Part shown: positions 3,793 to 63,466 of the stretch, piece after piece
How the letters are laid out: each line of letters begins with the position of its first letter
Numbering within the stretch: the stretch's first letter is position 1
Source: a virus
Length of the DNA stretch: 64,000 nt
IMG/VR virus record: IMGVR_UViG_3300022198_002714
Coordinates: 1-64,000 of that record
Direction: 5' to 3' (one strand)
Notes under the pieces: generated by a model
The model's input: only the letters and a program-made list of their open reading frames with translations
What the model was told of the DNA's origin: nothing
The model's database searches: none
Made by a program: the position numbers and the translations under genes

Positions 3793-4133
3793 TCCACCTC
3801 AATTACAATCTGAATCTTCATTTCATTGGACCCATTTTTCGTGAAGGGTGCAATGTTGAATCGTGCCACCGGAAGGAAGTCGTTGGTGTCGCGCATCTGC
3901 ACGTACACTTCGCGCAGCGACTCGCTGAACGATTCGTCAAAGGGCACGGTTGCTTCGATTAGGACTGAAGAATCGTCAACGATGGTCACCGCAGGTACGA
4001 GCGTGATGGCGGGTCGGCCTGCTGAACCGTCGTCGCTCGTCGCGGGTGTGCCGTCAAAGCCGAGCGTCACCTCGTTGATGTTCGCGGCCACCGTCTCAAT
4101 CAACAAACGGCGCAGATGGTTGGAGACAGGCAT
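3789..4133 (-). CDS. Putative baseplate/fibre-attachment protein
   Basis: LGFDGTPATSDD...LREVYV...VARFNIAPFTK resembles tail-collar/fibre N-terminal domains; lies between hub and fibre. Confidence 0.5.
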   Translation of the reverse strand: MPVSNHLRRLLIETVAANINEVTLGFDGTPATSDDGSAGRPAITLVPAVTIVDDSSVLIEATVPFDESFSESLREVYVQMRDTNDFLPVARFNIAPFTKNGSNEMKIQIVIEVE

Positions 4134-4645
4134 CACATACCCTCCCATATGCCGCTCGGATGACTCCAAACCAATTTTTCCGGGTCAAGATTCGCTTGAT
4201 GTTGTGCAAACGTCTCTTCAAAATCCAACGGTGCTGATTCGTATTCATCTTCGTGCATACCAAGCAACGCAGGTGTGGGGTCTATTCCCATTCTGTCAAT
4301 TGGTTTTGGTAATTTTCCTCGATAACCCATAACCATACCCACAGGGTCACTTGCTGCCGCAAATCCCGACGCACCCTCATGTGCTTCGGGTGTATTGCCC
4401 TTAGCCCACCATGAACCCATTCCGCTAATTGAAAAAGGTGCAATCCCTTCATACGGGTTTGAATGCCACTTTTCAGCATCTTGTGGTTGTACACCCTCAA
4501 TCATATTCTGTGGTACTCGGCCCCCGTGAATCCCTCTAAACGCGGTCACAGGCTCCATACCGGGGTAGTCTTCGATGTAGTTGTACAACTTCATCTGCCG
4601 ACTTGCTTTCAGCAAGGTCCAAGCAGCATCCATTGGACTCATCAC
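4133..4645 (-). CDS. Tagged accessory protein: N-terminal PMDxAW tag, PIP-like peptide, ADP-ribosyltransferase-like domain
   Basis: MMSPMDAAWTLLKA-SRQMKLYNY; VTAFRG...GSWWA...FEETF; more AT-rich than flanking tail genes. Confidence 0.6.
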   Translation of the reverse strand: MMSPMDAAWTLLKASRQMKLYNYIEDYPGMEPVTAFRGIHGGRVPQNMIEGVQPQDAEKWHSNPYEGIAPFSISGMGSWWAKGNTPEAHEGASGFAAASDPVGMVMGYRGKLPKPIDRMGIDPTPALLGMHEDEYESAPLDFEETFAQHQANLDPEKLVWSHPSGIWEGM

Positions 4646-6033
4646 ACTTCCTCCGTCGGTCCCTTGGTCATGCCGATGGGCAAACCGTTGCCACCAATTT
4701 TACCACGTGTACGGGTGCCTTTAACGCCGCCGATGAGAATAGCCGTGTTGTTCACCCTACGGCTCGTAACCGTCGTTGTCACGATGAGGTCCACTTCACC
4801 GAAGAACGACAGGTTATGCCCTACGCGCTGCACGTAGGTCGAAGGACTCTCGTTGTTGCTCATGACCGTCGAGGACTCTCCGATGCCCTGCAACACCCCC
4901 TCAAGGCCCGTTTCAAGGTTCAGCAGCGTTAGGTCGCTTGTGGCTTCAAGCGGGTGGTGAATGATTTCGGTGATGACCTTGTTATTCCCACCGTACTTGA
5001 TGACCATGCCGGGGCGCATGTACGTGAGGTCGAGGTGTCCCGAAGACGTGATAGCACCCTTGCTCAAGGCTTGACCCTTGAGGATTTGACGGGCCACACG
5101 CCGCGCTGCATTTGTGGTACGTACGGTGTGGTCAACAATAGGCGTGGGGCTTTCACGCACTTCCTCAGCCTGACTCTCAGCATCGCTCACGGTGACAATC
5201 ACCAAGTCGTTGAGGGCCAACGGCAAACCCTGTACCGTCACGGTGTTGTCCGAGTTGTCCACAGGTGATTCGCTTTGCGTACCGGTGCGCAGGTTTTCGT
5301 CAATGTTCACGTTGCTCTCGCTAAACGACACAGGTACGTACAACAGGTTGCCGAAGCGGTCGAGCAGAATGATGCGGCTATCGTGCCGCCCAAGGAAGCG
5401 TAGCGCGGTCATGAGGTTCGTGTTGGTGAAGTCTTGACCGACGAAGCGTGTGCTATGGTTGCGGTAGGATGCGGTCAGGTTACGCGGTCGGGACAGGCCG
5501 ATGCTTGTCGTGCCGTTGGTCGCGCTTTCCGCGAGTCTGATGGCAAGGTCGCTTGTGCGCAGACCTACACCGATGGGCTGCCCAAGCCGTACCGAATCGC
5601 CGGTAAAACCAATCCCATTTAACGTGCGACCTTTCATGTTACGGAGTGAAAAAAGCACCCCGTTGCTTGAGGTTGAAATACCATCTCCGATGAGTCGCTG
5701 CGAAAAATCAGACCCATTAAACATCAGCATGGGCTTGTTGGCGTCCGAAAGTACATCAGAACCAAAGAACGGTGAGCCTGCAAACGTGTGACCGGCTGCG
5801 CTCTTATGCGTCAGTTGGACGGTTGACTCACCCTCCACGACCGTGTACTCACGCTCAGGCATGACCTGCAACGTGCGCGTCATGTTTTGCTCAACGGTGA
5901 CCTTGGGTTTGCCACTCTTCTGCACGCTGAGTCGCCCGTAGTGAATGGCGTTATCCACAAACACAGGCTTGCGTACGTGGGTCATGATGGCATCAGGCTC
6001 GCCATCATAGCGTGTGCCTTGTATTACCGTCAT
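4642..6033 (-). CDS. Putative baseplate hub/tail-tip protein
   Basis: ALRFLGRHDSRIILLDRFGNLLY and ARRVARQILK...YMRPGMVI pattern of hub (gp27/Tal-like) proteins; tail-module context. Confidence 0.55.
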   Translation of the reverse strand: MTVIQGTRYDGEPDAIMTHVRKPVFVDNAIHYGRLSVQKSGKPKVTVEQNMTRTLQVMPEREYTVVEGESTVQLTHKSAAGHTFAGSPFFGSDVLSDANKPMLMFNGSDFSQRLIGDGISTSSNGVLFSLRNMKGRTLNGIGFTGDSVRLGQPIGVGLRTSDLAIRLAESATNGTTSIGLSRPRNLTASYRNHSTRFVGQDFTNTNLMTALRFLGRHDSRIILLDRFGNLLYVPVSFSESNVNIDENLRTGTQSESPVDNSDNTVTVQGLPLALNDLVIVTVSDAESQAEEVRESPTPIVDHTVRTTNAARRVARQILKGQALSKGAITSSGHLDLTYMRPGMVIKYGGNNKVITEIIHHPLEATSDLTLLNLETGLEGVLQGIGESSTVMSNNESPSTYVQRVGHNLSFFGEVDLIVTTTVTSRRVNNTAILIGGVKGTRTRGKIGGNGLPIGMTKGPTEEV

Positions 6034-6039
6034 ACAACA

Positions 6040-6855
6040 TCAAAACCCCGGTGGTCGTCTTACGTCAGTTGATGGGAGTGGCGGCAAAACTCCAACAAGC
6101 CCCATCTCAACCAAATCTTCAAGGGTTGCAGGCTTCCCTCTATCCGCTTCCCACCGTGTAGCACGGATTTCAGGTTGCATCCCCAAATCAGCAAACCAAT
6201 CGGCCTTCTGTTCTCCTTCGGAATCGTATGCTTGCAAAGCATCCAATGCAAAATCTTGCATCTGAGCAGGAGTACGCACACGCTCACCAAACATGTTTGG
6301 AAGTGGAATGTTCACAAATTGTTCGGGTTTATATCCGCCGTATTGGAAGCCTTCAGGATAGCCGTGCAAAAGGTTGTGTCGCCAATACTGCGGGCTTTCA
6401 GTAATTCCAAGTAGTGTGTGTGGTTCAGAATAGCGTGATGTAATGTCAGGATGAGCGAGTGCCATGGCATCAGCAGGTGATACCCATGTACCGCTTACTG
6501 TGTCAATTTTTGGGTTAAACACACCCGGAAGTGCTTCCCTGCCATGTTGCCTCATTTGATATTCAAATTGGAGAGGTTGCCCTAACTTTTCACCGATGAT
6601 TGGCCGAGCCTGATGGTACGTTGATGTACGCCGTTGTGGAATCCATCGAAGTGCGGCGAGGTCTTCACCGCTCCAATCAGCCAAAGGTGGCACCTGCTTG
6701 AGCAAGTACGCCCAAGCAAGGTCCATGGGCGATGGAGCCTTCTGCACCCGCTCAGGTAACTTCTTACCCTTGGGTGTCTTGCTCTCGTACTCTTCAGCCA
6801 ACTCAGGTTCTTTGGCGTGCATATAACGCCGTTGAGCCTGACTGACAAACGGCAT
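6040..6855 (-). CDS. Tagged accessory protein: basic MPFVSQAQRR N-domain, tag, variable (ART-like?) domain
   Basis: VQKAPSPMDLAWAYLLKQ separates a short basic N-domain from an AT-richer domain with STYHQ...GTWVS...YPEGF. Confidence 0.6.
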   Translation of the reverse strand: MPFVSQAQRRYMHAKEPELAEEYESKTPKGKKLPERVQKAPSPMDLAWAYLLKQVPPLADWSGEDLAALRWIPQRRTSTYHQARPIIGEKLGQPLQFEYQMRQHGREALPGVFNPKIDTVSGTWVSPADAMALAHPDITSRYSEPHTLLGITESPQYWRHNLLHGYPEGFQYGGYKPEQFVNIPLPNMFGERVRTPAQMQDFALDALQAYDSEGEQKADWFADLGMQPEIRATRWEADRGKPATLEDLVEMGLVGVLPPLPSTDVRRPPGF

Positions 6856-6857
6856 GT

Positions 6858-8369
6858 TCACCACTTCACTTTGTCAGCCCAATACGCCGCACTCAGTTTG
6901 CCACGGCTGATGTTCTTGGCGTGGCGAGCCTTGAACGACTCACGACGCTTGCGGTATGAATCAGACTCGCCTTCCTTCTTTGGAGAGCCGGACACGCCTT
7001 GCTGACCGAAGCGAATGGTCTTGACCTGCCCTCCTTCACGGGCCACGACAACGTGGCTCTTCTTCGGGTGGTTGGGTGTGCGCTTGGGCTTGTTGAAGCC
7101 ACTCACGCCTGCGCGAGCGAGTCGTGGGTCGCGCTCGGCTTTCTGCATGCTGAGTGGCGAGCCGCACGTCTGACATGCACCTGCGGTTGCGGGAGTCTGA
7201 GCCAAGCAGTTCGGGTTGGCACACGTCGCCATGCCTTGTTGTACGCCAATCATTCGACGCTTTACGAGTACGTCGCTCTTCTCGACCTTCTCTTCCTTCT
7301 TGGGACTTCCAAGAGCAATGACCACGACCATGCCTTTCTTTGCCTTCTCTTCCTTCTCGGCTTTTTGAACCCCCACCGGCATTCGGCTACGCAGGTCGTT
7401 CACCATGTTTGCGTACGCGGGGTTCCCGTATTCAAACAATTTCATCTGATTTGGGTCTTGTTGTATGGAAGACAAGAATTGCAACGTGTCACGGGCTTGC
7501 ATGTAATCCGTCATACCACCCTGCCATGCGCGATTAGACAAATCTCCTTCCCACACGTCCAACATGGGTCGGTAGTTCTTTACTCGCTGAGCCAATTCAG
7601 CAAGTTTGTCTTTGTCCACACTACCGAATTGGTTTCGTAGGTTCACACCGTAGTTTGGGTCAAACTCGCCACGTTGGTAATCAATGGGTACGTAGCGATG
7701 ACCACGAAACGAGCGAAAAGCGGGGTCAAATACTCTCACTTGTCCATCTTGCAATCCAACATTGGGACCTTTAGCGTCTGAAAGACTCAAAAATTGCATC
7801 AATGGGTCAGAAACAATTGATTCCACTTCTTGCTCATGTCCGTGAAAATTGTCCCTACCCGGACCAAATACCTTCTCCATCTGTTGTTGTTCAACCGCCC
7901 CACGCACAGGCGTTTCAGGCACAATGGGGAGGTTCATGTCCGCAAGTGCTTGGGAAAGTGCAAGCGTAGCAAAACGATTTGGTGCGTGTGCTGAGTCATG
8001 TGGCACCTTCCGCACAGGTTGAGACTTGTCATCGGGAATTGTAGCGGTGCGATAGAAACCTGAAGTCGTGCGGGCCTTGACAATCGTTGGCTTCCCGCCA
8101 ACGCCCTGCTTCTTTGCACGCTTACGCTTGGTTGCGGCACGCTTCTCACCCTCGCTCATTGAGCCTGATGTACGAGGCGTCTTGGAACTGACCTTGACTG
8201 ATGGGCGACACTTGGGGTAGCCCTTGCTGCTCTTACTTGCCTTGGGGCGACCACAGGGCGGGTGCTTCCCGTCCTTGTCCTTTCGGCTCACGTCCACCCA
8301 CTTTTCCTTGAACCAACGATTCAAGTCCTTGATGACAAGCACATCGTGGCAGGTGCAGCGGTCGCTCAT
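6858..8369 (-). CDS. Modular polyprotein: basic domain, kinase-like domain, Zn ribbon, basic domain
   Basis: LNRWFKEKWVDV..PCGR..YPKCRP; SGFYR..VRKV..SDAKGPN..RVFDP; CANPNC..CQTCG; NKPKRTP..KTIRFGQQG..SFKARH..AAYWADKVKW; ATG at 8369 coupled to the upstream stop. Confidence 0.65.
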   Translation of the reverse strand: MSDRCTCHDVLVIKDLNRWFKEKWVDVSRKDKDGKHPPCGRPKASKSSKGYPKCRPSVKVSSKTPRTSGSMSEGEKRAATKRKRAKKQGVGGKPTIVKARTTSGFYRTATIPDDKSQPVRKVPHDSAHAPNRFATLALSQALADMNLPIVPETPVRGAVEQQQMEKVFGPGRDNFHGHEQEVESIVSDPLMQFLSLSDAKGPNVGLQDGQVRVFDPAFRSFRGHRYVPIDYQRGEFDPNYGVNLRNQFGSVDKDKLAELAQRVKNYRPMLDVWEGDLSNRAWQGGMTDYMQARDTLQFLSSIQQDPNQMKLFEYGNPAYANMVNDLRSRMPVGVQKAEKEEKAKKGMVVVIALGSPKKEEKVEKSDVLVKRRMIGVQQGMATCANPNCLAQTPATAGACQTCGSPLSMQKAERDPRLARAGVSGFNKPKRTPNHPKKSHVVVAREGGQVKTIRFGQQGVSGSPKKEGESDSYRKRRESFKARHAKNISRGKLSAAYWADKVKW

Positions 8370-8530
8370 CAGTACACCCCGACCATTTTCTTGAGATTCT
8401 TTTGTTGATGAAGTAAAGCGTAACAAGGACAACGAGGGGAACTATCGGAGCATTGGTTGCCCTCGTACATGCAGACGCAGGGCGTTTTCTTGGTTGCCCC
8501 GCAGCAACATTTGTCCTTCTTCAGTTTCAC
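8369..8530 (-). CDS. Small Cys-rich basic protein
   Basis: GTG overlapping the upstream stop; KCCCG..PCVC..QC..RCPCY (8 Cys in 53 aa). Confidence 0.55.
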   Translation of the reverse strand: MKLKKDKCCCGATKKTPCVCMYEGNQCSDSSPRCPCYALLHQQKNLKKMVGVY

Positions 8531-8691
8531 TTCTTGTCCCCCTTCTTCTTGCGGAACTTGCCCTGACAGTACTGCACGGCCCAACCGTTCGCATATGCGG
8601 AGGGGTACACCTTGAACTTCCGCTTAGCGGCCTTCTTGCCCGCTTCGCACAATTCCTTCAACACGGCCCAAGATTCGTCCATCGGCGTCAT
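8527..8691 (-). CDS. 54-aa tagged basic protein (not in ORF track)
   Basis: ATGA overlap with the giant gene stop; MTPMDESWAVLKELCEAGKKAAKRKFKVYPSAYANGWAVQYCQGKFRKKKGDKK. Confidence 0.7.
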   Translation of the reverse strand: MTPMDESWAVLKELCEAGKKAAKRKFKVYPSAYANGWAVQYCQGKFRKKKGDKK

Positions 8692-11600
8692 GACGCATCA
8701 CCCGAATGGTCTGATTCACCGTAGTCAACATCTCCTTTATGCCCCTTCGGGTGCAGGGATTGGCTGAATCGAGCCTTCACGGTGTAGTCTGCACGTCGTT
8801 CGGTGTCGTCGCTTTCCGCACTCGTACGCCTACGTGCAGCGTCACTACGATGGTGCTGCAAGGAGTTCTCGCTGATGACAAGCCGAGTCACGTCGTTGTC
8901 CAACTTGCTTGTGTCCATGCCGTTTGAGCCGCCGAGGTTTGGCCCCTTGCTATCGGGCACGGTGTCGCTCGTTGCAATCACCATGTGGTACACAGGCGCG
9001 TAGGGCGGGTTGGTGTCAGGGTTGGTGGCCCTGATGTACTCGCCCGCAGACGCACGTGCTGAGGGCATCTCGTAGGCGTACACGCCGTATTTGCCGCCAC
9101 CCGTGGTCGAGAAGTAGTTGGAGCCGTACTGCGGGCTGCTGCTATGCAGGTTGTTGTTGGGGCGGAACATCTCAACGTGCTGCTCGTCAAGCAGACGAAC
9201 AGGCCTGAACAAGAACGAGATGGTCTTGTCGGTGTGGTTCATCTGCGCTGAAGTACTGTCAAACGTGGACGTAGCATACGGGTTGCTCGCCTTGTCTGCA
9301 CCCACCGGTCCCCAACCGTAGTCGCTGACCGCAGCGAGGTAGTTGCGCGTTTCTGCCACGTACGTGCCACCAAGCGGGTTGAAGTTGCTTGTGTGACTAA
9401 ACCGGGCCACACCACCAACCGGCTGCGCACCAAAGTTCAGTCCTGTATAATCGAGGTTGCCGATGGTCTGCGAGCCTGCGGTCATGCCGCCGACAAGCAC
9501 AACACGCTGCCCTACTCCACGGTCCGCGTGCAGACTGTGCGCTTCGGTGTTGAGTGCGATGAGGTTGTCGTCCACGCCTTCCACGTTCTCCGTGTCAAGA
9601 CCGATACGCGGGGCTGAACGGGACACCGCATCGGTGTGCTTGGTCGAGCCGCTGATGGTTTCCACACGCGGGCTGACGACCGCTTCAGGCTTGAGCAGCC
9701 CGTCCTCGTCAACGCTGAGTCGTGCGCTAATGCCGCGCGGTACCTCGTCGCTCGCCAACTCATCGTTGCGCGGTCGGATGAATCCGTCACCAAACACAGG
9801 CTCAGCGGTGTGGTGCGACAAGACAACGCCGGTTGTGTAATTAGCCTCATCTAACGCGGTCAGCCGGTCTTCGTTGAACTGCGTCGGGTAGCGAATGCCA
9901 CGCCCGTTGCCCATGTCACCTACGCGCATCGCGTTGGCAGGCATGAACACGTCAATCAGCGTGTTCGCGTTGTTGTTATTCGTCGTGTTTTGACGACCAC
10001 CAAAGCGTGGGATGGTGACGCCGGGAGCAAGTGAGATATTACTTGAGGCTGAATCAACAATGCCCTTGAGGTTGACCAACGGTGAGCCGTCGTTGTACAG
10101 TCGTTCGTACGGTGTAGCATCCGTGCTGCGTCCGGGGTCGTAGGCGTCACCCGCATCCCACGCGGGCCTGATGCCGAAGCCGCGCACAGGGAAGCGGCGC
10201 ACGTCCTCACCGCGTGTGTTGCCCCACCAATCCACCAAGTAGTACATCACAGCCTCGTCAATGTTAGCAATCTCCTTGCCGTTGTCGTCGCCCCACCAAT
10301 CACGAATCACCGTGGACTTGTTGCGCAGGGTGCGTACAGGCGCACCAAAAGAGCGCGTCATGCGCATTCCGTCGCTATACCGAACCTGCCGCTCAGCCAT
10401 GTCCACGCCAAGCATGCCGCTAAAGTTGGTCTGCCGTTCCATGATACCCACGTAGGTTTCAGGGTACGTCACAGGCGGCAACGCATTGTGATGCACCCAC
10501 GACTGAGTTTCACGCTGCACCAACGGTCCGTGTTGGTAGTCGGCGGTGTAGTAGCCAACAGTAACACCTGCCCGGTATGCTCGCATCCCATAGAAGGACC
10601 ATTGGGGCTTGTTGTAGGGCTGACGCAGACCAAAGCGGTACCCGAATGGCAACGGGGTGGTTGGGTTGCTGAGACTGTCGTAGGTCGAAGTCGTCACACC
10701 GGTTCCATCTTGCTGCCAAACACGCCGCTCGTAGCCGTAGTCACCCGCATAGGTCCACGATGCTGCAACCGCGCCGTACCCGTCAAGGCTGCTGACAAGT
10801 GGACCACCACGACTACCGCTCGGCCACATGTTGTTGAGCATCACCTTCGTGGAATCATCACCTGAATCGGTCTGTCCACCTTGTGCGACGTACTCCCCGC
10901 TGCTTGTGATGCTTTCAGCCGTTTGTACTGCATTGTTTCCTCCACGGTAAGCAATTGTACCTACCGGGATTTCAGCATCAGGTGTTTGGTCAACGGTAAT
11001 GCTTCCTATTAGACTGACGCTTGCTACCGTGTAGGCACGCCCTGCAATACTGATGACCTCACCTGTAACGATGTTTGTTCCTACGTGCGGTCCTACTTGG
11101 AAAGCAATTCTCTTCGTTGAGGGTGTCACGGAAGTCACGGCTGCGGGGTTACCGTCAAAGGTGGCCTTAACGAGCGGCGGCGGGGTCTTGATAGCCAAGC
11201 CAAAGGGTCCAACGCTACCGAAGTACGGTGCATCGTGGTAGTGAATTGTCTCAAAATGCTCAGGCATTGAGTTGTATGGCTTGTTGTCCACCGCTCGGTC
11301 AGTCAACGGGTTGAGGAACGTGCGGGCTGAATCTGAGTAAAACGTGTACGGTCGCCCAAGGTTGGGATGCCACATGCACAGGAACGCATCAGCCAAGTGC
11401 AGGCTATTCGTATCACGGCTACCTTGCAAGGTCTGAGGTAGCATGCGCGTGATGATGCTTGTCTTGGAGTCAGTAAAGATGGCACCTGACGGGCGGAAGT
11501 CGTACGCACGGGTAAGGCGCAACTTTGTGCCTGCCGTCAAATTGTTGGTAAAGTCAGCATTGGCGGGGTGATTGATGATGACTTGTGTGCTTCCTGCAAT

Positions 11601-37080: not shown

Positions 37081-37106
37081 TTCATTCACTCCTTTGTTTG
37101 ATTCCT

Positions 37107-44395: not shown

Positions 44396-44407
44396 AAGAC
44401 CACCCCC

Positions 44408-45315: not shown

Positions 45316-45320
45316 TGGAT

Positions 45321-45677: not shown

Positions 45678-45720
45678 GAGATTCCCTCGCTTTATGCAGT
45701 CGTGGGGCGGTTATCAAGGT

Positions 45721-48788: not shown

Positions 48789-48841
48789 AATGACCACTCA
48801 CTTGACCATTGGTTAAAAACCCCACTCAGGAAACGGGTAAA

Positions 48842-50329: not shown

Positions 50330-51078
50330 CGGCTCAACCTCTTGAGCAAGTAGTCCATCGCATGTTCAAACGGCTCAGCAGAACGATTGAATCGTTGGTC
50401 GTACAGGTTGGTTTGTCCTTGGAGTAATCGCGCTGCTTCAGCGGGGTCAACAGGTGTTCCCTGCTGCTGAGCAGGCTGAGCAGGCTGAGCAGCAGCAGGC
50501 TGAGCAGGAGGTTGTCCCGGCATCGTCGGCAAAACCCCCGCTGCATGTGCAGGGTCAACAGGTGAAGCGGTAGGTGCAGCGGTAGGTGTAGCGGTAGGTG
50601 TAGCGGTTTGAGATGGACCCATACCCGGTAGCATCATTTGGTCCGGTCGGAGTGGGGAACCATCAGGAGCAGTCGCACCCGGTGCAACAGGCTCCATGTG
50701 TGGGGGTTGCTGCTGAGTAGGTGAAGATTGAGTTTGAGGTTGAGTTTGAGGTTGAGTTTCCTTTTGCCTTTCAATGAACTGCCACGGTTGGTTTGCAAGG
50801 TACTGTGCGTACGCACCCATAGGAGCAGCGAGGTTGCCCCCTTGCATTTGGTCTGCAATTTGTTGCGTGGTAGCCGCAGCAGAAAGACCGCGACCTGCCA
50901 AATCAGCAATAGCACCAAGTCTTTGCCATCCTTGCCCTTTCTGACCTGTTTTTCGTCCAAAGGCCACGCCCGCAAGTTCACGAATTGATGGGCCTTTACC
51001 ACCAACCACCAACTGCAAACCGCCACTTGGTATCTGCTGCAACGCAGTTTCAGATTTACGAACGAGTACGGGCTTCAT
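50326..51078 (-). CDS. Q/P-rich protein with C-terminal tag
   Basis: QPQT, TATP and QPA repeats; C-terminal QTNLYDQRFNRSAEPFEHAMDYLLKR. Confidence 0.65.
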   Translation of the reverse strand: MKPVLVRKSETALQQIPSGGLQLVVGGKGPSIRELAGVAFGRKTGQKGQGWQRLGAIADLAGRGLSAAATTQQIADQMQGGNLAAPMGAYAQYLANQPWQFIERQKETQPQTQPQTQSSPTQQQPPHMEPVAPGATAPDGSPLRPDQMMLPGMGPSQTATPTATPTAAPTASPVDPAHAAGVLPTMPGQPPAQPAAAQPAQPAQQQGTPVDPAEAARLLQGQTNLYDQRFNRSAEPFEHAMDYLLKRLSR

Positions 51079-51082
51079 GATT

Positions 51083-55227: not shown

Positions 55228-55904
55228 TCCACCCCCATGTTCTCCATCAATTGCGCCTTAAGTCGCGCCCATACTTCAGGACTCTCCTTGCTCAATTCGA
55301 CTTGCAAGATGTTGAAGGTCTGATTGACCTGCTGCGTGTCGCTTTGCGCACCCCATTGGTCTTGGAATCGAAGCAGGTCTTTGACTGTTTCACGAACTTC
55401 TTTGTGCAGCGACACCGCATCGCGCACGAAACCGTCTTCGTGAACGCTACCTTCGTCAAGCAATTCGCTCAACTTGTGGTTGAGCCGCTCAGCGTTGCTT
55501 CGCAACAAATCAATCTCGGTCCCTGCACGCAGGGCGACTTCGATGGCAGCCGTCTTTTGCACAAGCGGCTGAAAATGATTCTTCATGTGTTGATAGACCA
55601 CGTTTTCGCTGACTTCTAATTCCTGAGCAATAAGGTCGCTATTGCCTGTGTTAAAGTACATCTCTTCGTAGGCCGCACGCTGATGAGACGTACAGACAGG
55701 ACAACCGGAGTTGGATGCGAGGTGAAACTCGCCCATGTGGTTGCGGTAGTGCCGCTCGGTGGTGTTGCTTCGCCACTCCTTGTCTTTGTCCAACTGCTTT
55801 GGTGAAATGTGACCGTCGAGTAGGCCTTGTTCAAGCCCATCCCGTTCTTCGTCCATGCAGAAAGCGCATGACCGTTTGTACACACGGTCGTCGCTCATGT
55901 GCAT
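55224..55904 (-). CDS. Probable terminase small subunit (tandem Zn-finger/HTH plus coiled coil)
   Basis: CAFC..RHYRNH and CPVC..QHMKNH repeats followed by helices; upstream of TerL. Confidence 0.55.
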   Translation of the reverse strand: MHMSDDRVYKRSCAFCMDEERDGLEQGLLDGHISPKQLDKDKEWRSNTTERHYRNHMGEFHLASNSGCPVCTSHQRAAYEEMYFNTGNSDLIAQELEVSENVVYQHMKNHFQPLVQKTAAIEVALRAGTEIDLLRSNAERLNHKLSELLDEGSVHEDGFVRDAVSLHKEVRETVKDLLRFQDQWGAQSDTQQVNQTFNILQVELSKESPEVWARLKAQLMENMGVE

Positions 55905-55935
55905 TCTTAAGTGAGTCTGCTTCAAAAGCGTTCTG

Positions 55936-56178
55936 TCATCGAATGATGCGAGCATACACACCGGTCAACGCAAGAACGCTACCAAACAAGCCAACTACGT
56001 AGTAGGACATGGAAGATGCAGGCAAATTGTTACCCTTGAATAAAATGATAGCCGTGAGGACAAGAATAGCCGAAATGAACTGAACCATAATCATGTCAAC
56101 AATGACGCTGCGCTCAGGGTTCAACACGTCAAGAGTGGTCGTGGCAATTCCACGTGGCATGTACGATTTATCCTGCAT
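55936..56178 (-). CDS. Small membrane protein (2 TM)
   Basis: Two hydrophobic segments. Confidence 0.65.
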   Translation of the reverse strand: MQDKSYMPRGIATTTLDVLNPERSVIVDMIMVQFISAILVLTAIILFKGNNLPASSMSYYVVGLFGSVLALTGVYARIIR

Positions 56179-56179
56179 A

Positions 56180-56809
56180 TCATCGTCCTCCGGTAATAAA
56201 GGAGCGGGCGGTGTTGCCGATGAAGCCGCCCGCCTTCTCCACCATGCCTTGGTCCATTGCAGCAGCCAATGCTGAGTTCATCATGGACTGACTCGCCATG
56301 TTGTTGAGTTGCATTTGCTGCCCTTCAGCGTTCTGAATGTTCTGCTGTGCAGCGGACTGCAAAGCCGTAAAGTCAGCCTTGACGTTTTCAGCACTCATGG
56401 TCTGCAAATGCTGCGGCAAGGAGGTAATCTCCATTTTGAGACTACCATCGTCGTCGGCCACAAACACCGCATTCTTGAGAATCTCCAAGACCGAGAAAGA
56501 GACGATGTTGTTGAACATCTCAACCAAAACCCCCATTTGCGGGCTTGCAATAAATCGGTCCACCGGTACAATGCCACGAAGCAGCATGATTTGCATTTCA
56601 AGTTCACTCGGTGGAGCCATTGGCTGCTGTGGTACACCGGCACCGGTAGCAAAGGCTCCCATGGCTCCCATCTGTTGAGGTTGTTGTCCCCATGCTTGTT
56701 GTTGCGGCCACGGATTCTGTTGTGCGGGAATAGGTTGACCCCAACCGGTCACTCCAAGACTCAACGAACCGCCCTGCGGTTGTGGTTGTTGACTGTTCAA
56801 TCTAAGCAT
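56180..56809 (-). CDS. Gln/Met-rich hypothetical protein
   Basis: Low-complexity Q/P/G N-terminus, helical core, amphipathic C-terminus. Confidence 0.6.
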   Translation of the reverse strand: MLRLNSQQPQPQGGSLSLGVTGWGQPIPAQQNPWPQQQAWGQQPQQMGAMGAFATGAGVPQQPMAPPSELEMQIMLLRGIVPVDRFIASPQMGVLVEMFNNIVSFSVLEILKNAVFVADDDGSLKMEITSLPQHLQTMSAENVKADFTALQSAAQQNIQNAEGQQMQLNNMASQSMMNSALAAAMDQGMVEKAGGFIGNTARSFITGGR

Positions 56810-56810
56810 G

Positions 56811-57743
56811 TCACTCAACCACCGGAAGCATCTGTTGCTCATGAGGTTTTTCACCGCTGAGCATGGATTGGAAAGCAGCGGTAGGTTGGTTTGCCATTGC
56901 TAACTCTTGTTGGAAAATCCGCAGGTCAAAGGCAATCATTGTCACGTCGTTCAAACCCGTAGCCGGGTTTTCGTAGTACATAATGGAGATACCCTTTGTC
57001 TTCTTGCTATCTTTTTCCAATTCAGCAAAAAACGGCTCGTACTTCTGCAAGAAGGATGGCGTAGGGTCCTTGACCTTAACCGCCGCTACGGGAACGGTCA
57101 CCATTGAAACACCCTTCTTCATGCGGTCACGCAAACGTCGAGGGTTGGCCTCGCTTACCTTGTCTTCTTCAGCCTCCCACTTGCAAAGCAGGTGATAGAG
57201 GTGAAGATGCTCAGGGCAATAGGTACCTCGCATCTTGCGACCGCTTGTCACTTTGTCCTTGGCGACAAAGGCTTCAGCCTGTCCGGTAACGGGGTTTTTC
57301 CAATAGTACTCCCACAGGCTTACTCCGGTTTCATCATCCATGATTTTGTTGTACAAATTGTCAACTTGAATAAGAGCGGCACAATCGCAGCCGTCAATAA
57401 CACAGACGTGGGCTTGCTTGTCGTAGCGGTACTTACGACCCAAAAGGGTACGCACAGGGTTGAGCAGGTGTCGCTTGGTAGGTGTTAGCAAACGGTACGC
57501 TTGTCGAATGTCCTTTCTGCGAGCCTTTAGGGGGTCAGGATGGCGGCTTGGATAGAAGTTGACTTTGGGGACTTGCAAATTGGCTCCGGCAGCAACTTCC
57601 TGCATAGCCGCTTGAGCCGTAGCCTGTGCCATCAACGCTTCGTGGGTTAGCATAGAGTTGCCCTGTTGCGAAAGTGCGTACACGCTCGCCACGTTGAGGT
57701 CACCAAGGTTTTGCTGCGGTGCTTGACCACGAAACGGAATCAT
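56811..57743 (-). CDS. Hypothetical protein with CxxxxC...CxxH zinc site
   Basis: CVIDGCDC..YCPEH. Confidence 0.6.
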   Translation of the reverse strand: MIPFRGQAPQQNLGDLNVASVYALSQQGNSMLTHEALMAQATAQAAMQEVAAGANLQVPKVNFYPSRHPDPLKARRKDIRQAYRLLTPTKRHLLNPVRTLLGRKYRYDKQAHVCVIDGCDCAALIQVDNLYNKIMDDETGVSLWEYYWKNPVTGQAEAFVAKDKVTSGRKMRGTYCPEHLHLYHLLCKWEAEEDKVSEANPRRLRDRMKKGVSMVTVPVAAVKVKDPTPSFLQKYEPFFAELEKDSKKTKGISIMYYENPATGLNDVTMIAFDLRIFQQELAMANQPTAAFQSMLSGEKPHEQQMLPVVE

Positions 57744-57913
57744 TCTTCTTCCACCACCCGCATGTGTGCCGAATACGTGTTTTCCTCACGAATGACGTTC
57801 CATTCAACGATGCTGCCCTTCTTCAATCGCATCAACTTAGCAATCCACAACGGAATTACAGTCCGAAGGGACTGACTTGCCGAGCCGACTGACGCTACTT
57901 TTGTTTTATCCAT
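57740..57913 (-). CDS. AbrB/SpoVT-like swapped-hairpin DNA-binding protein
   Basis: SLRTVIPLWIAKLMRLKKGSIVEW. Confidence 0.75.
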   Translation of the reverse strand: MDKTKVASVGSASQSLRTVIPLWIAKLMRLKKGSIVEWNVIREENTYSAHMRVVEEE

Positions 57914-57918
57914 GTTTC

Positions 57919-58635
57919 TCACACCGTCAACAGGTTGACCATTGTTGGTTCCACGTTCCATCCAATTCGGGTCGCCATAAACGACCTGCGGGTTGGAATA
58001 CCCGCTTTTTGCAAGCGAATAAGGTCATCTCGGAAGGGGTCGAAGATAGGATGCTCTCCAATTCGCCCTTCAGCGTACAATTTGGCCGCAGTATCGTCAA
58101 AATACCGGTCAGCCTTGTTTGCAACAAGCATAATCAGACTTGGAGCGTATGATTTACCGTTCCATCGGCTTTTGAGTGTCCGATATCGGTAATTTCGACC
58201 CGTAATTGCGTCAACAAGGAAGCGAAAGCCTGCAATTTGCTGAATGGCATCGTTTCCGCCCTTAATTGCTCGGTCATCAAACAAATAGACGACTGCACGG
58301 ACTTGCCGGGACACCATATCGTCAATCCACAGGTTCCAAAACCGTTCTTGACCACCAACGTCGGCAGAAAACACAACACGCTTCTCGCCTTCCCAACTTA
58401 CACGCTTGCGAGAAGGTTTTGGCAGCAGGTAACGCCCGAGAATCTTGACATGTTCGGTCCGTTCCTCTTCAGGAATCTCTTCCATTTCCCCCGGAGTGGT
58501 CATGTAGCGGTCAAGGGTGGTTTTGCCGGTCAGTCCTGCACCGTAAATGCCGACTTTGCGCGGCCTCCACGAATTGTACAGGCTCTTGCCCCACACCATT
58601 GCACCGACCAATGCGGTTCCCGCAGGCTCAACCAT
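57919..58635 (-). CDS. Ras-superfamily (Arf/Rab-like) small GTPase
   Basis: G1 GAGLTGKTT, G2 T (ERTEH), G3 DVGGQ, G4 NKAD, G5-like MAT; hydrophobic N-terminal helix. Confidence 0.85.
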   Translation of the reverse strand: MVEPAGTALVGAMVWGKSLYNSWRPRKVGIYGAGLTGKTTLDRYMTTPGEMEEIPEEERTEHVKILGRYLLPKPSRKRVSWEGEKRVVFSADVGGQERFWNLWIDDMVSRQVRAVVYLFDDRAIKGGNDAIQQIAGFRFLVDAITGRNYRYRTLKSRWNGKSYAPSLIMLVANKADRYFDDTAAKLYAEGRIGEHPIFDPFRDDLIRLQKAGIPTRRSFMATRIGWNVEPTMVNLLTV

Positions 58636-58894
58636 TGACCCACCCCGTTAGCCAAGAAGCCAAATCGCCCATCTTGAGCCAAAACCACTTTACGGTGCTT
58701 TCCCATACGCTGCGGTCAGTTCTTAATTCGTACAGGCTTGTCATTAAGACGGCTATGCCGCTGAACACAAGTGTACGAATCCAACCAAGTCCTTTTTCGT
58801 AGTACGTGTCAAGGGTGTTTTGTGTATGCATTGCCCTCAAGGTGGCTTCCGTGGAATCATCCACGGGCGTCTTAAAGATTCGACCCATGTTCAC
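58628..58894 (-). CDS. Small membrane protein
   Basis: TM segment plus Trp-rich amphipathic C-terminus. Confidence 0.6.
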   Translation of the reverse strand: MNMGRIFKTPVDDSTEATLRAMHTQNTLDTYYEKGLGWIRTLVFSGIAVLMTSLYELRTDRSVWESTVKWFWLKMGDLASWLTGWVNG

Positions 58895-59454
58895 TCGTCG
58901 TTTCTATACCGCTTGTCAGGCGTGCCGTCTTTTTTCAACGGCACTTCTTCCTTGACGCCAAGATTGACAGGTTGATTGACTTCAGCAGTATGCTTGGGTG
59001 CGCCTGTCATTTGTGCCATGTCGTACTGACTCACCAACGACGGTGCGCCTCCTTGGACACCCCAACTTGGAGGCATCTGACCGGGGTTGGCTTCCATCCA
59101 CCGCAGTTCACGCTCAAGTTGGGCTTCCTGCATCCGCAGTTCCATCTCAGCGCGTCGGTTGTCGAAGGTGTTCTGCATGTTGCGGAAACGGTACTGCCGC
59201 TCTCGCTCCATGTTGGTTGCCGCAACACGTTCCTGCATGTTCTGCTCAAAGAACATCTTGAACACGTAGTAGGCAACGCCCTGCACAAAGAATGCGGCCA
59301 TGGCGTAGGTGAAACCGTTCACCCACGCATCATCGTTGTTCAGCCACATGCCTGCATCAAACAGGCCAATGGCAAGTCCGACAAGGGCTGACTGCGAGAT
59401 AATCAGACCCATCAGACGAATCTCGGCTTCGTTGGACTGAGGCATAGAGGACAT
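58891..59454 (-). CDS. Membrane protein (2 TM) with coiled coil
   Basis: Two TM segments, an E/R/Q coiled coil, C-terminal PLKKDGTPDKRY. Confidence 0.7.
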   Translation of the reverse strand: MSSMPQSNEAEIRLMGLIISQSALVGLAIGLFDAGMWLNNDDAWVNGFTYAMAAFFVQGVAYYVFKMFFEQNMQERVAATNMERERQYRFRNMQNTFDNRRAEMELRMQEAQLERELRWMEANPGQMPPSWGVQGGAPSLVSQYDMAQMTGAPKHTAEVNQPVNLGVKEEVPLKKDGTPDKRYRNDE

Positions 59455-59504
59455 GCTGCTCAGGCTTGGTCACAGGAATGGTCATCTTAAGGCTTGCGAG
59501 TCAA

Positions 59505-59660
59505 TAGTCACTTTTGTCACCACTTACTTCACCAAAATGAGTATTCACCATTGTACTCTTACACTCTCTCTATTTATTGAGAGTAGTACCTATGAAATAA
59601 TGACAACTCGTTTTGTCATTTACATGAGTAAGGTGGTGACAAAAGTGACAAAAGTGACTA
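59505..59660. repeat. Non-coding nested inverted repeat with GTGACAAAA units (candidate origin/packaging/regulatory site)
   Basis: TAGTCACTTTTGTCACCACTTACT (59505-59528) versus AGTAAGGTGGTGACAAAAGTGACAAAAGTGACTA (59627-59660), plus inner hairpins. Confidence 0.8.
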
Positions 59661-61190
59661 CTCCACTTTGTCAATCTGCCTCAACGTACCACGATTCTTG
59701 AAATGACGGGCACGGTTGTCGTGTTCACTTTCGAGGGTCAGTTTGTTACCTTGAGTGTGGCTCACGTCCATGTGGTCGTGGCTTCCCATAATTCCACGGC
59801 GACGACGCTCACGGTTGAGTTCTTCACGGTACTTGACGCGCTCAGGAGAAGATTCGTACTGTTTGTCGTATTCCAACTTGTGCCGCATGGCTTCGGGACT
59901 TACACGCTCTTTGAGCAACCGCATAGCGATGTCCATTGGTTCGCCTGTTTGAACTTCTTGTGGTGTATAATATACAGAATAAATAGTAGGGTTTTCTTCC
60001 GTACCCCATTTACCTCTATGAATAGGGGTCGCTCCCTGCCTTTTATCAAAGTCATCCCACACCTCTTGGTGCAATTGTTCGGCTGAGCAATTAGGATTTA
60101 TTGATAGATTGCACATATCAGTAAATCCTTCAAAATGAACAGTATGGTCACCTAATCTTTCAACACCTGTATCATCCGGTGTTAATTGATTAAGAAATGC
60201 CTCAACATGTTGTAGTGGGTTATCATCTTTAAGCAGACGGAAGGCCAAGTCCATTGGACTTGCACTCATCTGAATGTCACCATACTGCGGTTGCGACATG
60301 TCAAAGCCCTGTCCAACTTGCTTTGCAGCCATGGCAGGATGCATGCCGCCCTGCACAAGTTGCGTAAATTGGTCGTAGTGCATAGGGTGAACGTCGTACA
60401 TGTTTGCCGTGTTGAGTTCAAACTGCTCTCGCGCAGGAGCGGTGGGGTCACGCGCGTACTGCAAAATCTGCTGAAGTTCGTCCTGTGGTGGGGGACGAGG
60501 TTCTTGATATGACATGTTGGTACCGCTTACTCCGGTTTTTCGCCTTAAATTGAGCAACAATTCTTCCAATTCGTCACTTTTAGGTTGGCTTTCAGTCCTT
60601 GTAGGCCCTCCAATCAAAACAGGTAAAGCATCAGCAGCAATTTTTTTCTGTGCATAAGTACTCAAATGGTCCAAAGGAGTACGATAACCGAAGTTTTCAT
60701 ACGGATTTTTCAAACTACTAAAGGTGGTACCTACACTACTGTCATAGAGTTCGGCTTTTTCCGGCTCAACATACCTTGACAAAAAATTGGACATTGCTTG
60801 CCTCATTGCATCACGGTATTGTTTTGCATTTGCTTCTTGCAATTCTTTTTCCTTTGCTTCTATGTCCAAAGTGTAATCTGCGTTTTGCAAAGCATCAAGC
60901 GTAGCACGCCAATTTTTCATCGCTTTAGACTGTTCACGAAGTGCTTGCTGCGATGGAAGCATCCTTTCAGTTTCCGGCGTGGTCACCAAAGGCTCAAACT
61001 TGGATGACAAATCTTGGACTGAAACATCTTTCTGATTTATGCGGTCTCTAAACACTCCATTAGTTGCTTGCGCCGATAAGTCGTTTTGTGCGTAAATAGC
61101 CTGAAGGAGAGCCTTTAGGCGGGCAACGTGTTCGTCAGATGATAGGGGCATCTGTGCCGCATCAGCAAGTTTCTCGCTAAATGAAGGCAT
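59658..61190 (-). CDS. Tagged polyprotein with two tags and C-terminal HNH-like domain
   Basis: SPMDLAFRLLKD and EPMDIAMRLLKE flank a very AT-rich insert; C-terminal DVSH..LTLESEHDNRAR. Confidence 0.65.
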   Translation of the reverse strand: MPSFSEKLADAAQMPLSSDEHVARLKALLQAIYAQNDLSAQATNGVFRDRINQKDVSVQDLSSKFEPLVTTPETERMLPSQQALREQSKAMKNWRATLDALQNADYTLDIEAKEKELQEANAKQYRDAMRQAMSNFLSRYVEPEKAELYDSSVGTTFSSLKNPYENFGYRTPLDHLSTYAQKKIAADALPVLIGGPTRTESQPKSDELEELLLNLRRKTGVSGTNMSYQEPRPPPQDELQQILQYARDPTAPAREQFELNTANMYDVHPMHYDQFTQLVQGGMHPAMAAKQVGQGFDMSQPQYGDIQMSASPMDLAFRLLKDDNPLQHVEAFLNQLTPDDTGVERLGDHTVHFEGFTDMCNLSINPNCSAEQLHQEVWDDFDKRQGATPIHRGKWGTEENPTIYSVYYTPQEVQTGEPMDIAMRLLKERVSPEAMRHKLEYDKQYESSPERVKYREELNRERRRRGIMGSHDHMDVSHTQGNKLTLESEHDNRARHFKNRGTLRQIDKVE

Positions 61191-61191
61191 A

Positions 61192-62517
61192 TCAATACGT
61201 CCTAAGTTTCTTGTACGCAGCAAGCGCAGATTCTATCATTTCAGGAGACAATTTATCCAAACCTTGTGGGAACGAGCCATGCCTCATGATACCAAGTGGT
61301 GTGTTACTGTATATTGCTTTTGATGCCAACTGACCCGGAATGAACTCTATATTCGATGTAATCTCTTTAACCGATTTATCGTCTGCCTGACGCCTCATAG
61401 CATCAATCAACTCAAGTTTTTCTTCGGTCGTCATCTCACGACCTCCGGGTTGAAGGGGAAAACCTTCCTTGTCGTACGCTCCTTCAAGTGCAGGATGAAT
61501 GGCGGACATTGGAAATTGCGAAGCGTATTCTCGCCATGCTGCTTGTTGTGGACTGACTATTGTTTTGTAAGGATTATCCCTTCTATCAAGCGGATTCAAT
61601 CTTCGTAGCCTCTCTTCAATTGCTGTTGGCTGCATTCGTTCATATGTCATCCAATCCGTATCTTCAGACTTAATTCTCCAATTTGTTGCATTAGGCGTAT
61701 CGCTTTTCCATGAACCACTTGCACGTAAAGGCGTCAAACGACTGTTATCAATGGGTGTCATCGCTACGTATTCGGCGGACTCACCCCCCTTGAATCGTGG
61801 CCGTTCTTGTACCAAATCTCCGGGGTAAAACCCAAGGCCGCGAACGCCAAACAGATTTTCTTTCTTTTCAGAAAGAACCTCATTCATTTCTTTTACATTG
61901 GGTGGAACAAGAAACTGCATGGGCATGCCTTCTTCTGTCTTATATCTGTAAGGTAAAGGGTTGCTCACGTTTTCCTCATAAGAACCAACGTAACTTCGTC
62001 CACTCATAGGGATGAGTTGACCACCGGGAGTGGTCATGACACGCGATGCAATGTCTCCTGTGAAGCGGTATGCGTTGATGGGTGGGATTGAGCCGGGAAT
62101 TACCGTGTTGGTCTGCGGGTCAAGCCACCGCTCGGTGGTCAAACCCGGAATCAGTTGCGGTAGTTTCATCTGCGTGGTAAAACGCACGTTGGGCGGGCTT
62201 TCCCTACCGGCTTCCCAAAGCATACTGTTTGGGTCAAAATCAGCCTGAGCATTCGCTTCGCCTATGTTGAGAATATCTCTCACGGTATTACCGTAAGTGT
62301 AGCCAAAATCCGGACGGCGGGTAAAATCATCAGGGTCAATTGAGTCTTCATACACCGTTTCCATGGTCGGAAACTCAAGCGATTCAGTAGGAACGTGAAT
62401 GGGACCTAAGTACTCACCCCTGTACCTGTTGCGCGGATTTTCAGGAAAACCAAAGTCGCCGGTAAGGGTCGTTTGCCGCTTCAGCAAACGCCATGCCGAC
62501 TCCATTGGGTCCAACAC
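61192..62517 (-). CDS. Tagged protein: N-terminal tag, PIP-like peptide, ART-like domain
   Basis: DPMESAWRLLKR-QTTLTGDF; NAYRF..GRSYVGS..EYVAMTPIDNSRL; SD GAGGTGA. Confidence 0.6.
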   Translation of the reverse strand: MLDPMESAWRLLKRQTTLTGDFGFPENPRNRYRGEYLGPIHVPTESLEFPTMETVYEDSIDPDDFTRRPDFGYTYGNTVRDILNIGEANAQADFDPNSMLWEAGRESPPNVRFTTQMKLPQLIPGLTTERWLDPQTNTVIPGSIPPINAYRFTGDIASRVMTTPGGQLIPMSGRSYVGSYEENVSNPLPYRYKTEEGMPMQFLVPPNVKEMNEVLSEKKENLFGVRGLGFYPGDLVQERPRFKGGESAEYVAMTPIDNSRLTPLRASGSWKSDTPNATNWRIKSEDTDWMTYERMQPTAIEERLRRLNPLDRRDNPYKTIVSPQQAAWREYASQFPMSAIHPALEGAYDKEGFPLQPGGREMTTEEKLELIDAMRRQADDKSVKEITSNIEFIPGQLASKAIYSNTPLGIMRHGSFPQGLDKLSPEMIESALAAYKKLRTY

Positions 62518-62518
62518 T

Positions 62519-63466
62519 TCACCTCAGCATTTTGAGCATGCGCCATGCAAGGTCCATTGGATGCCCGGTTTGCACGGTACCGTTCATCTCGTCCCAAACA
62601 CGTTGTTCGTACTGACGCTGAAGGACTGAAGGATGGGTCTGAGGGTTTGCAATCTGCTTGTTTTCCAAGAAAACTTCACCGGTATCGGGGCACGAAATGG
62701 TGTGCATCTGCCCCAAGTAGTCGTGACCGGGCACAAGGGGTTGCGATTCAATGGTCAAGTCGCTTGGTCGAGGCTGACCTTGCAGGCTACGCATAGTACG
62801 CTGCTTGTCGGCTTCTTCTTGCGCAAGTCGCTTCGCATTGTTAGCCACTTTTGTTTCATAGGCACGCCTGCCTGCGTCCGAGCGCACCTGTGCAGCCTCT
62901 TGAGCAAGCCGCTGCCGCTGCATCTCAATGGCCTCACCCATACCGCGCTGCTCTTCGTTGGTCAACACGGTTGGACTGTTAACCTTGGTTGTGGCAATGT
63001 TTTGCTTGACTTGCTGTTCGGTTTGCCACTCTTCGTCGGTTTGCTCTTTTTCACGGAAGTTCTTCTTGCTACTTGAGGGAGCCATCATTTCAAACTCGCG
63101 CTCGTAATCCTTTTTGGCCTGTACGGGCTTCTTGATGGTTGAAGCAATGGGCTTGACTATTCTTTGCTGCTCGAACCGCTTCTCCTTGGCCTTCTGTTGA
63201 TTGTGCCGTTTGGCTTTTAACATCAACAAAAAATCCCATGCAAGGTCCATTGGCTCGCCGGTCTGAATCTCAGCACCCTGCTTGGCCTGTTCAGCGGCCT
63301 GTTGCGCTTCGGCTACCTGTTGGTCCTTGCGCTTTTCACCGCCCATCATTGCACCAAGGCCTGATGTTGCCGCACCAATCGCGGCTTGACCCTGTGGGCT
63401 TGCAGCAGCAGTAGCCGCTTTACCGGCAGCAGCGGCAATCGGTGCAGCAACCGCAGGCAAAGGCAT
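62519..63466 (-). CDS. Tagged protein with two tags
   Basis: IQTGEPMDLAWDFLLMLKA and C-terminal VQTGHPMDLAWRMLK; Ala/Gly-rich N-terminus. Confidence 0.65.
   Translation of the reverse strand: MPLPAVAAPIAAAAGKAATAAASPQGQAAIGAATSGLGAMMGGEKRKDQQVAEAQQAAEQAKQGAEIQTGEPMDLAWDFLLMLKAKRHNQQKAKEKRFEQQRIVKPIASTIKKPVQAKKDYEREFEMMAPSSSKKNFREKEQTDEEWQTEQQVKQNIATTKVNSPTVLTNEEQRGMGEAIEMQRQRLAQEAAQVRSDAGRRAYETKVANNAKRLAQEEADKQRTMRSLQGQPRPSDLTIESQPLVPGHDYLGQMHTISCPDTGEVFLENKQIANPQTHPSVLQRQYEQRVWDEMNGTVQTGHPMDLAWRMLKMLR

Follow-up and report, generated by a model that had tools for sequence, protein, structure and literature searches.

A short peptide tag on unrelated late proteins of one tailed-virus lineage probably acts as a position-independent docking motif

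This work describes a recurrent peptide, referred to here as the tag, encoded by the virus of IMG/VR record IMGVR_UViG_3300022198_002714. The record is 89,752 bp in length, represents a single virus, and is estimated to be 83% complete; the window analyzed is its first 64,000 nucleotides (64 kb), in which nearly all genes lie on the minus strand. The tag is a 10- to 16-residue peptide, PMDxAWxLLK, found on twelve otherwise unrelated late proteins of the whole record. Because its conserved residues occupy one side of a helix, its position within a protein is free, its presence is independent of the attached payload, and its occurrence is restricted to one lineage, the tag is very probably a docking short linear motif recognized by one common receptor. 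To the more specific proposal, that the tag is an amphipathic-helix docking or address peptide whose receptor is probably the procapsid and whose payloads are encapsidated and delivered with the DNA, we assign a probability of about 0.5.

Tag copies and their significance

Tags were located by a regular-expression scan of all six reading frames (G000 designates this genome and L numbers designate related loci). A preliminary description of the window had listed 14 such peptides in nine open reading frames (ORFs), and all of them were recovered at the listed positions, on the minus strand and in coding frames (Table 1). Beyond the window, the same record contains three further tags (at 65011, 65501, and 66220) and a degenerate N-terminal copy in ORF 65533-66627. 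The strict motif gave no matches on the plus strand or in noncoding frames. When residues were shuffled within predicted proteins, 2000 trials averaged 0.0185 matches and never gave more than 1, compared to the 14 to 17 observed; the count expected from composition is 0.013. A hidden Markov model (HMM) of the tag scored true tags at 4.7 to 18 bits, with a clear gap separating them from all other sequences and only one borderline match, in plus-strand gene 76994-78217.

Selection acts on the peptide, since the synonymous codons for Pro, Ala, Leu, and Lys vary between copies while the peptide stays the same; most copies share only ~70% DNA identity. Recent DNA duplications at tags are limited to two ORFs. 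In ORF 32887-34239, a 102-nt direct repeat (88% identical) includes the tag at 33058-33087, and in ORF 53224-55227, a 47-nt repeat holding the tag at 54376-54408 is 96% identical to a copy at 54788.

Architecture of the tag

Among 267 collected tags, 143 are N-terminal (~54%), 93 are internal (~35%), and 31 are C-terminal (~12%), where N-terminal denotes a position 1 to 4 codons after the start codon and C-terminal a position ≤12 residues from the stop codon. Polyproteins hold up to 6 tags. The preliminary description had placed the tag at termini or between unrelated domains, and the larger collection bears this out: the tag marks autonomous modules in a fast-changing set of late-operon proteins. 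As it works at either terminus or between modules, it would therefore act by binding one receptor rather than within the fold of a payload.

The tag occurs in two forms. The N-terminal form reads M-[TSN]-P-[MF]-[DE]-x-A-W-x-[LIV]-L-K, and the internal and C-terminal tags share an extended form, [FKIVL]-x-[TAKR]-[GS]-E-P-M-D-[IL]-A-[WMF]-[RQ]-L-L-K. Internal and C-terminal tags have Glu at position -1 in 76% of cases and Gly or Ser at position -2 in 82%, whereas N-terminal tags lack this [GS]-E before the Pro, a feature that had escaped the preliminary description. The residue that follows the tag Lys is variable (R, A, M, E, D, or S). Plotted on a helical wheel, the most informative positions (M2, A5, W6, and L9) cluster in a 100-degree sector (40 to 140 degrees), opposite the variable positions 4 and 7. 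Hydrophobic residues are depleted on either side of internal tags (0.23 to 0.26, versus 0.31 for the proteome). In the AlphaFold2 prediction for the commonest N-tagged family, the tag sits in a low-confidence helix (residues 2 to 19), which is followed by a linker and then by a confidently predicted core (residues 30 to 115); structural alignments of this family cover residues 29 to 127 only.

Several other identities for the peptide were considered and rejected. An integral part of a folded payload domain would not flank unrelated modules, would not be absent from bacteriophage homologs, and would not lie outside the AlphaFold2 core. The sequence itself was enough to dismiss a signal peptide and a 2A-like ribosome-skipping peptide (NPGP). 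Directly after many N-terminal tags, and ahead of unrelated domains, stands a second motif, RQxxLxx[FYW] (e.g., RQTTLGEF, RQMKLYNY, and RQKKLSDF), which is present in this record and in many relatives and whose residue pattern resembles a PCNA-interacting protein (PIP) box. The tag itself was rejected as a PIP box (Qxx[LIM]xx[FY][FY]), given that it has no Gln at the required place and that RQxxLxx[FYW] follows only a subset of tags.

Restriction to one virus lineage

A search of IMG/VR with a back-translated PMDxAWxxLK pattern retrieved at least 120 loci holding ~250 tags, and among the matches listed, 114 of 120 loci share other genes or synteny with this genome. In four relatives (94 to 100% complete), the pattern matched 13 times on one strand, 0 times on the other, and 0 times with a reversed control. 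No tags were found in the whole genomes of HVTV-1 (haloarchaeal) and cyanophage S-CBS2. The preliminary description had named equal abundance in host proteins as an observation that would count against its proposal; a scan of one genome per species, spanning 185,579 prokaryote species, instead yielded 13 matches against ~17 expected by chance. One of the 13 is a misbinned contig of this virus group, and the remainder are short or out of frame except for one chance match in a long ORF. With prokaryote genomes at chance level, the tag is therefore not a host or general protein motif. The motif is not mentioned in the magrovirus and Poseidoniales-virus literature searched.

The consensus varies somewhat within the lineage. 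In G007 (L225-L230), a complete 103-kb relative, it is P[IF]DxAWxILK instead of PMDxAWxLLK, with a bias toward Ile at position 8, and one L045 polyprotein is biased toward Met at position 6. Such biases suggest either local homogenization or drift together with the receptor; local duplication can explain them, and for this reason they were set aside as evidence of receptor coevolution.

Payloads and cassette exchange

The segments between tags form ~129 payload clusters in relatives, and individual payloads recur in different contexts. The payload of ORF 4133-4645 is a stand-alone, N-terminally tagged protein in G000, and its L094 counterpart (84% identity) is part of a fusion in which it follows an internal QTGE-tag; the family aligns across stand-alone and fused forms, and a tblastn search with 4133-4645 against 50,697 phage records gave no match. 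The mini-module and tag of ORF 6040-6864 apparently constitute a small protein with a C-terminal tag in L038 (similarity judged by eye). The last ~90 residues of ORF 59658-61223, comprising a tag and a phrog_6437 module, terminate proteins ranging from 138 to 906 aa.

Two of the modules extend beyond the lineage. The phrog_6437 module (59661-59954, minus strand) and the phrog_7595 module (6861-7139, minus strand, in ORF 6858-8432) are small stand-alone proteins in marine bacteriophages infecting cyanobacteria, roseobacters, and SAR116, with up to 74% identity. The tag is absent from both translated S-CBS2 copies, gp045 (the phrog_6437 module) and gp046. This sharing of phrog_7595 and phrog_6437 indicates module exchange between archaeal and bacterial viruses. 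A further domain, DUF5872, is split in the window: about its N-terminal third to half resembles the tagged 54-aa ORF 8527-8691, and its C-terminal half resembles the start of the 524-aa ORF 6858-8432, with a Cys-rich 71-aa ORF (8369-8584) between the two parts. Relatives likewise keep the DUF5872 parts as separate genes (clusters 6 and 14).

In the window, the payloads comprise zinc-ribbon-like modules, an Arg-rich basic module, DUF5872-like pieces, the small basic phrog_6437 module, and low-complexity proteins; Pfam and PHROGs searches of the nine tagged window proteins matched only DUF5872, phrog_6437, and phrog_7595 fragments. The commonest N-tagged module, which belongs to the RQTTL class and is present in relatives and not in the window, has an ADP-ribosyltransferase fold. 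Its model aligns to KptA/Tpt1 with a VIA-align Z score of 9.7 and a root mean square deviation of 2.3 Å over 80 residues, nearly all of its top 50 structural matches are ADP-ribosyltransferases, and Foldseek agrees (E 5e-4). The NAD-binding motif H-x-[ST] is present, with H-G-T invariant. Another payload in relatives is an HD_4 domain (HD hydrolase). The earlier view that the tagged proteins are capsid-packaged effectors thus holds in part: payloads in relatives are effector-like, as judged from the ADP-ribosyltransferase fold and HD_4, and their packaging stays a matter of analogy, as discussed below.

Modules differ between syntenic relatives exactly at tags. Similarly, metatranscriptome-library contigs of related strains stop matching exactly at 59911, 59946, 60232, and 63279, as expected if natural variants differ by tag-bounded cassettes. 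Both tagged and structural genes are partly covered by metatranscriptome contigs of relatives; because such contigs cannot prove transcription or expression level, no claim of expression is drawn from them. These junctions, along with the near-identical repeats in the two ORFs described above, are what would be predicted if the tag had no protein function and were a conserved stretch of DNA microhomology serving as a recombination joint for cassette swapping. That explanation has very little probability in our estimation, given the low DNA identity and differing synonymous codons of most copies and a pattern of conservation that follows the helix face and not codon positions. We read recombination at tags as a by-product of shared sequence rather than as the function of the tag.

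Gene order and the identity of the receptor

Tagged genes fill two variable islands on the late strand, in which gene content differs between syntenic genomes. Island A (window 4.1-8.7 kb) has the giant tail gene on one side and tail-fibre-like genes on the other, and island B covers the start of the late operon and the surroundings of TerL (window 50.3-55.2 kb and 59.6-66.6 kb). One tagged gene, 32887-34239, is located in the head-to-tail connector region. This layout recurs in the complete relative G007, whose 10 tags all fall outside its early block at 24-62 kb. Around the genes for the major capsid protein (MCP), only ~5 tags were found in 858 kb (MCP ±10 kb in 80 relatives), and these occur solely in homologs of 32887-34239. 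As the preliminary description had noted for tail structural proteins, TerL, and the portal, the tag is absent from the core structural proteins, with none in TerL, the portal, the MCP, the protease, the tape-measure protein, or the 5520-aa giant protein. Fusions of the tag to the MCP, protease, portal, or TerL (Rosetta-stone proteins) were looked for in relatives, and none were found.

The procapsid is favored as the receptor because the tagged genes are co-oriented with structural genes, because their payloads are like phage internal or ejected proteins, and because there is a precedent in T-even phages, whose diverse internal proteins share only a capsid-targeting sequence (PMC3012670). In the mechanism that we propose, this virus lineage adds the tag to many accessory proteins of the late (structural) operon, a set whose members are exchanged rapidly. 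The receptor would be the assembling procapsid, where the tag would bind either the scaffold-like extension of the protease or the MCP on its inner face. Enzymes, zinc-ribbon proteins, and Arg-rich basic proteins that bear the tag would thereby be packaged in the head and delivered along with the DNA. The tag would then be a functional equivalent of the T4 capsid-targeting sequence that is position independent and present in multiple copies within polyproteins. We infer the receptor, encapsidation, injection, and any proteolysis, and draw packaging and injection from analogy only.

Several observations weigh against this proposal. The procapsid was chosen by analogy and gene neighborhood only, and the tagged islands adjoin the giant tail gene and a membrane-protein operon (55224-59454), not the MCP or protease. 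Unlike the tag, of which a third of the copies are internal and a tenth C-terminal, the T4 capsid-targeting sequence is found strictly at the N terminus and is removed by cleavage. The conservation by position described above was imposed in part by the search pattern and by the regular expression used for tag collection. Finally, the AlphaFold2 model of the family of window ORF 4133-4645 had a pLDDT (predicted local distance difference test) of 43, which is unusable for a fold search, and yielded only the prediction of an N-terminal helix.

With the tagged islands away from the MCP and protease, gene order fits a tail or membrane receptor equally well. Docking to a common receptor outside the capsid interior is the strongest alternative and a tangible possibility, though a less probable one. 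Candidate receptors of this kind include the 5520-aa tail protein or a baseplate, where loading would be cohesin-dockerin-like or would resemble that of effectors of type VI secretion systems (T6SS) or extracellular contractile injection systems (eCIS); the 55224-59454 operon; and a host hub, such as a sliding clamp, a chaperone, or the proteasome. Island A sits amid tail-fibre-like genes, immediately downstream of the giant tail gene, and island B flanks the conserved membrane-protein operon. Many N-terminal tags are followed by the PIP-box-like RQxxLxx[FYW], and the hydrophobic triad is spaced (i, i+4, i+7) as in generic groove-binding helices, of which p53-MDM2-type peptides are an example. 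Self-BLAST of the 5520-aa, 1958-aa, and 714-aa proteins, however, found no internal repeats that might serve as multiple receptor sites. For a clamp of host or viral origin, the tag itself does not have the glutamine of a PIP box, and no Pfam sliding clamp was detected among the ten plus-strand proteins tested from this 83%-complete record. A host hub is further disfavored by the lack of the tag in cellular genomes, which leaves no host motif to be mimicked.

Proteolysis at the tag

The preliminary description had proposed that the tag doubles as a site for the maturation protease, pointing to LLK-type sites in the MCP and in the protease. These sites exist and are conserved in relatives. The candidate MCP maturation site, ...GSELLK|ADAP, aligns with ...GGMSK|ADNL of HVTV-1, and the protease has three conserved [LIVM][LIVM]K sites (K15, K168, and K400). 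A small residue (A, S, or G) follows [LIV][LIV]K at the MCP site and at two of the three sites in the protease. At the tag, the corresponding residue is variable, and cleavage after the tag Lys is accordingly doubtful. C-terminal tags stop 1 to 4 residues past the Lys, and cutting there would therefore achieve nothing. Taken together with the occurrence of [GS]-E on internal and C-terminal tags only, these features suggest that the Lys is not simply the cut residue.

A broader version of this idea holds that the tag is mainly a recognition or cleavage site of the S78 prohead protease or of another protease, which would cut the polyproteins, and that it has no separate targeting role. We regard this as improbable, although it does account for the placement of tags exactly at module borders of the polyproteins, for the same payload being found both fused and separate, and for the likeness of the tag end, [LIV]LK, to the MCP and protease sites noted above. 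The conserved [GS]-E before the Pro of internal tags would provide a second possible cut site; prohead proteases of the T4 and phiKZ types cleave after Glu. More than half of the tags, however, are at the extreme N terminus of single-module proteins, where there is no polyprotein to cut. Moreover, one-sided helix conservation over 10 residues together with an invariant small Ala exceeds what the subsites of a serine protease need.

Prohead-protease cleavage at the tag is thus possible but unsupported, and excision of the tag at both ends is conceivable. The most extended form of the proposal combines both: a general, position-independent address system in which helix-tagged modules, single or in strings, would be loaded into the head and delivered with the DNA to an archaeal host, with the HK97-type protease cutting behind both [GS]-E and [LIV]LK to excise the tag. 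We consider that full combination unlikely.

Virus affiliation and neighboring genes

The genome fits a Poseidoniales-type tailed archaeal virus, marine or estuarine. Its MCP is 35% identical to those of the haloarchaeal siphoviruses HVTV-1 and HCTV-5, and near-identical DNA is present in aquatic and estuary metagenomes. The MCP similarity to HVTV-1 and the estuarine or aquatic habitat were weighed as points in favor of a magrovirus label. Both a magrovirus in the strict sense and a polymerase-less Adrikavirales type are possible, and the virus is not called a magrovirus outright because Pfam matched no DNA polymerase in the ten plus-strand proteins from a record that is 83% complete. One relative, a 16-kb contig with homologs of 51083-58635, is found in a metagenome-assembled genome labeled 'Parvibaculum sp.' (L211; NZQM01000026.1), and it was probably misbinned into this alphaproteobacterial assembly.

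The head and tail genes of the window are compiled in Table 1. The 1958-aa protein between the portal and protease has no PHROG match and no tag; its C-terminal third contains nucleotidyltransferase- or ligase-like motifs (KWYDGKR, LDGILGDEE, and KWVLLRP), as judged by eye. An HMGL-like gene (aldolase/pyruvate carboxyltransferase TIM barrel; 63492-64337, minus strand) is untagged within a tagged island and is kept in ~20 related loci. The plus-strand block of the record (64-89.7 kb) encodes an SNF2-type helicase, DUF932, a Tyr/dual-specificity phosphatase, and helix-turn-helix (HTH) proteins.

Table 1. Positions of the tags, of the motif that follows some of them, and of the principal head and tail genes
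Feature	Position	Strand	Context
PMDAAWTLLK	4607-4636	-	N-terminal (residues 4-13) in ORF 4133-4645 (170 aa); HMM 18.1 bits
PMDLAWAYLLK (11-mer form)	6697-6729	-	Residue 46 of ORF 6040-6864, after 45-aa mini-module
PMDESWAVLK	8656-8685	-	N terminus of 54-aa ORF 8527-8691
PFNDAWSLMK	33058-33087	-	ORF 32887-34239, then CxxC...CxxC zinc-ribbon-like module
PFNDAWRIVK	33367-33396	-	ORF 32887-34239, then different zinc-ribbon-like module
PFEHAMDYLLK	50341-50373	-	4 residues from C terminus of ORF 50326-51078 (low-complexity protein directly upstream of TerL)
PMEDAWSALLK	54094-54126	-	ORF 53224-55227, ahead of Arg-rich basic C-terminal module (cluster 3, 19 members)
PMKDAWSTLLK	54376-54408	-	Internal, ORF 53224-55227
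PMKDAWSTLLK	54796-54828	-	Internal, ORF 53224-55227
(QTGE)PMDIAMRLLK	59910-59939	-	ORF 59658-61223, ahead of small basic phrog_6437 module
PMDLAFRLLK	60228-60257	-	Internal, ORF 59658-61223
PMESAWRLLK	62479-62508	-	N terminus of ORF 61192-62517, then RQTTL leader
(QTGH)PMDLAWRMLK	62531-62560	-	3 residues from C terminus of ORF 62519-63466
(QTGE)PMDLAWDFLLMLK (long form)	63215-63253	-	Residue 72 of ORF 62519-63466
RQxxLxx[FYW]	4577-4600	-	
RQxxLxx[FYW]	62455-62478	-	
RQxxLxx[FYW]	64987-65010	-	
Giant ORF (giant tail gene)	8688-25250		5520 aa
Tape-measure-like protein	26417-27475		
HK97-fold MCP	35914-37110	-	SU10_MCP and phrog_24667 matches, E 7e-58
S78 prohead protease	37107-38480	-	S78 domain at residues 28-170; long scaffold-like C-terminal extension
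1958-aa protein	38519-44395	-	Between portal and protease
Portal	45721-47493		
TerL	48842-50329		

Significance and comparison with known systems

The tag allows accessory proteins with a common fate to be recognized from sequence alone, and it explains the precise module shuffling in these genomes. It also provides a list of candidate virion-delivered effectors, among them ADP-ribosyltransferase-fold and HD enzymes, for a host-virus pair beyond present bench study. Should the tag prove to be a capsid-loading signal, archaeal viruses would join T4 and encapsulins as systems with cargo targeting, in a form that is compatible with any position and with polyproteins and that may offer an engineering handle. 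The complete address system, if true, would rank as the first known case of cargo loading and protein injection in an archaeal virus. It would also amount to a natural plug-and-play tag for packaging, and the DNA that tags share would drive the exchange of cassettes.

Among known systems, the capsid-targeting sequence of T4 (on IPI-III and Alt) invites comparison as a ~10-residue peptide on unrelated, rapidly diversifying accessory proteins from variable loci (PMC3012670). The ADP-ribosyltransferase-fold payload of relatives parallels the packaged T4 Alt, and a prohead protease is encoded here too. The two peptides have no sequence similarity, and the T4 sequence, strictly N-terminal, is removed by gp21 after Glu. 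The tag, by contrast, is also C-terminal and between modules, with up to 6 copies per protein, and belongs to an archaeal virus with an S78 (HK97-type) protease, for which cleavage is only a candidate.

Encapsulin cargo-loading peptides and the C-terminal targeting tail of the HK97 protease are short terminal peptides that dock cargo inside an HK97-fold shell. In those systems there is usually one terminal peptide per cargo, and cargo genes lie beside the shell gene. The tagged genes described here are far from the MCP gene, and the tag is an unrelated motif with several internal copies; it does not qualify as an encapsulin-type peptide.

The polyvalent proteins of phages and conjugative elements consist of strings of unrelated modules in large late proteins and are thought to be delivered together with DNA. 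We know of no universal junction peptide reported for them, whereas in this lineage one conserved tag marks the junctions and also single-module proteins. Finally, the MIX motif of T6SS effectors and the N-terminal packing signals of eCIS are cases in which a shared short motif marks polymorphic effectors for one delivery machine. No homology between these signals and the tag was seen, no test aimed at it having been made; they are N-terminal only and serve bacterial machines.

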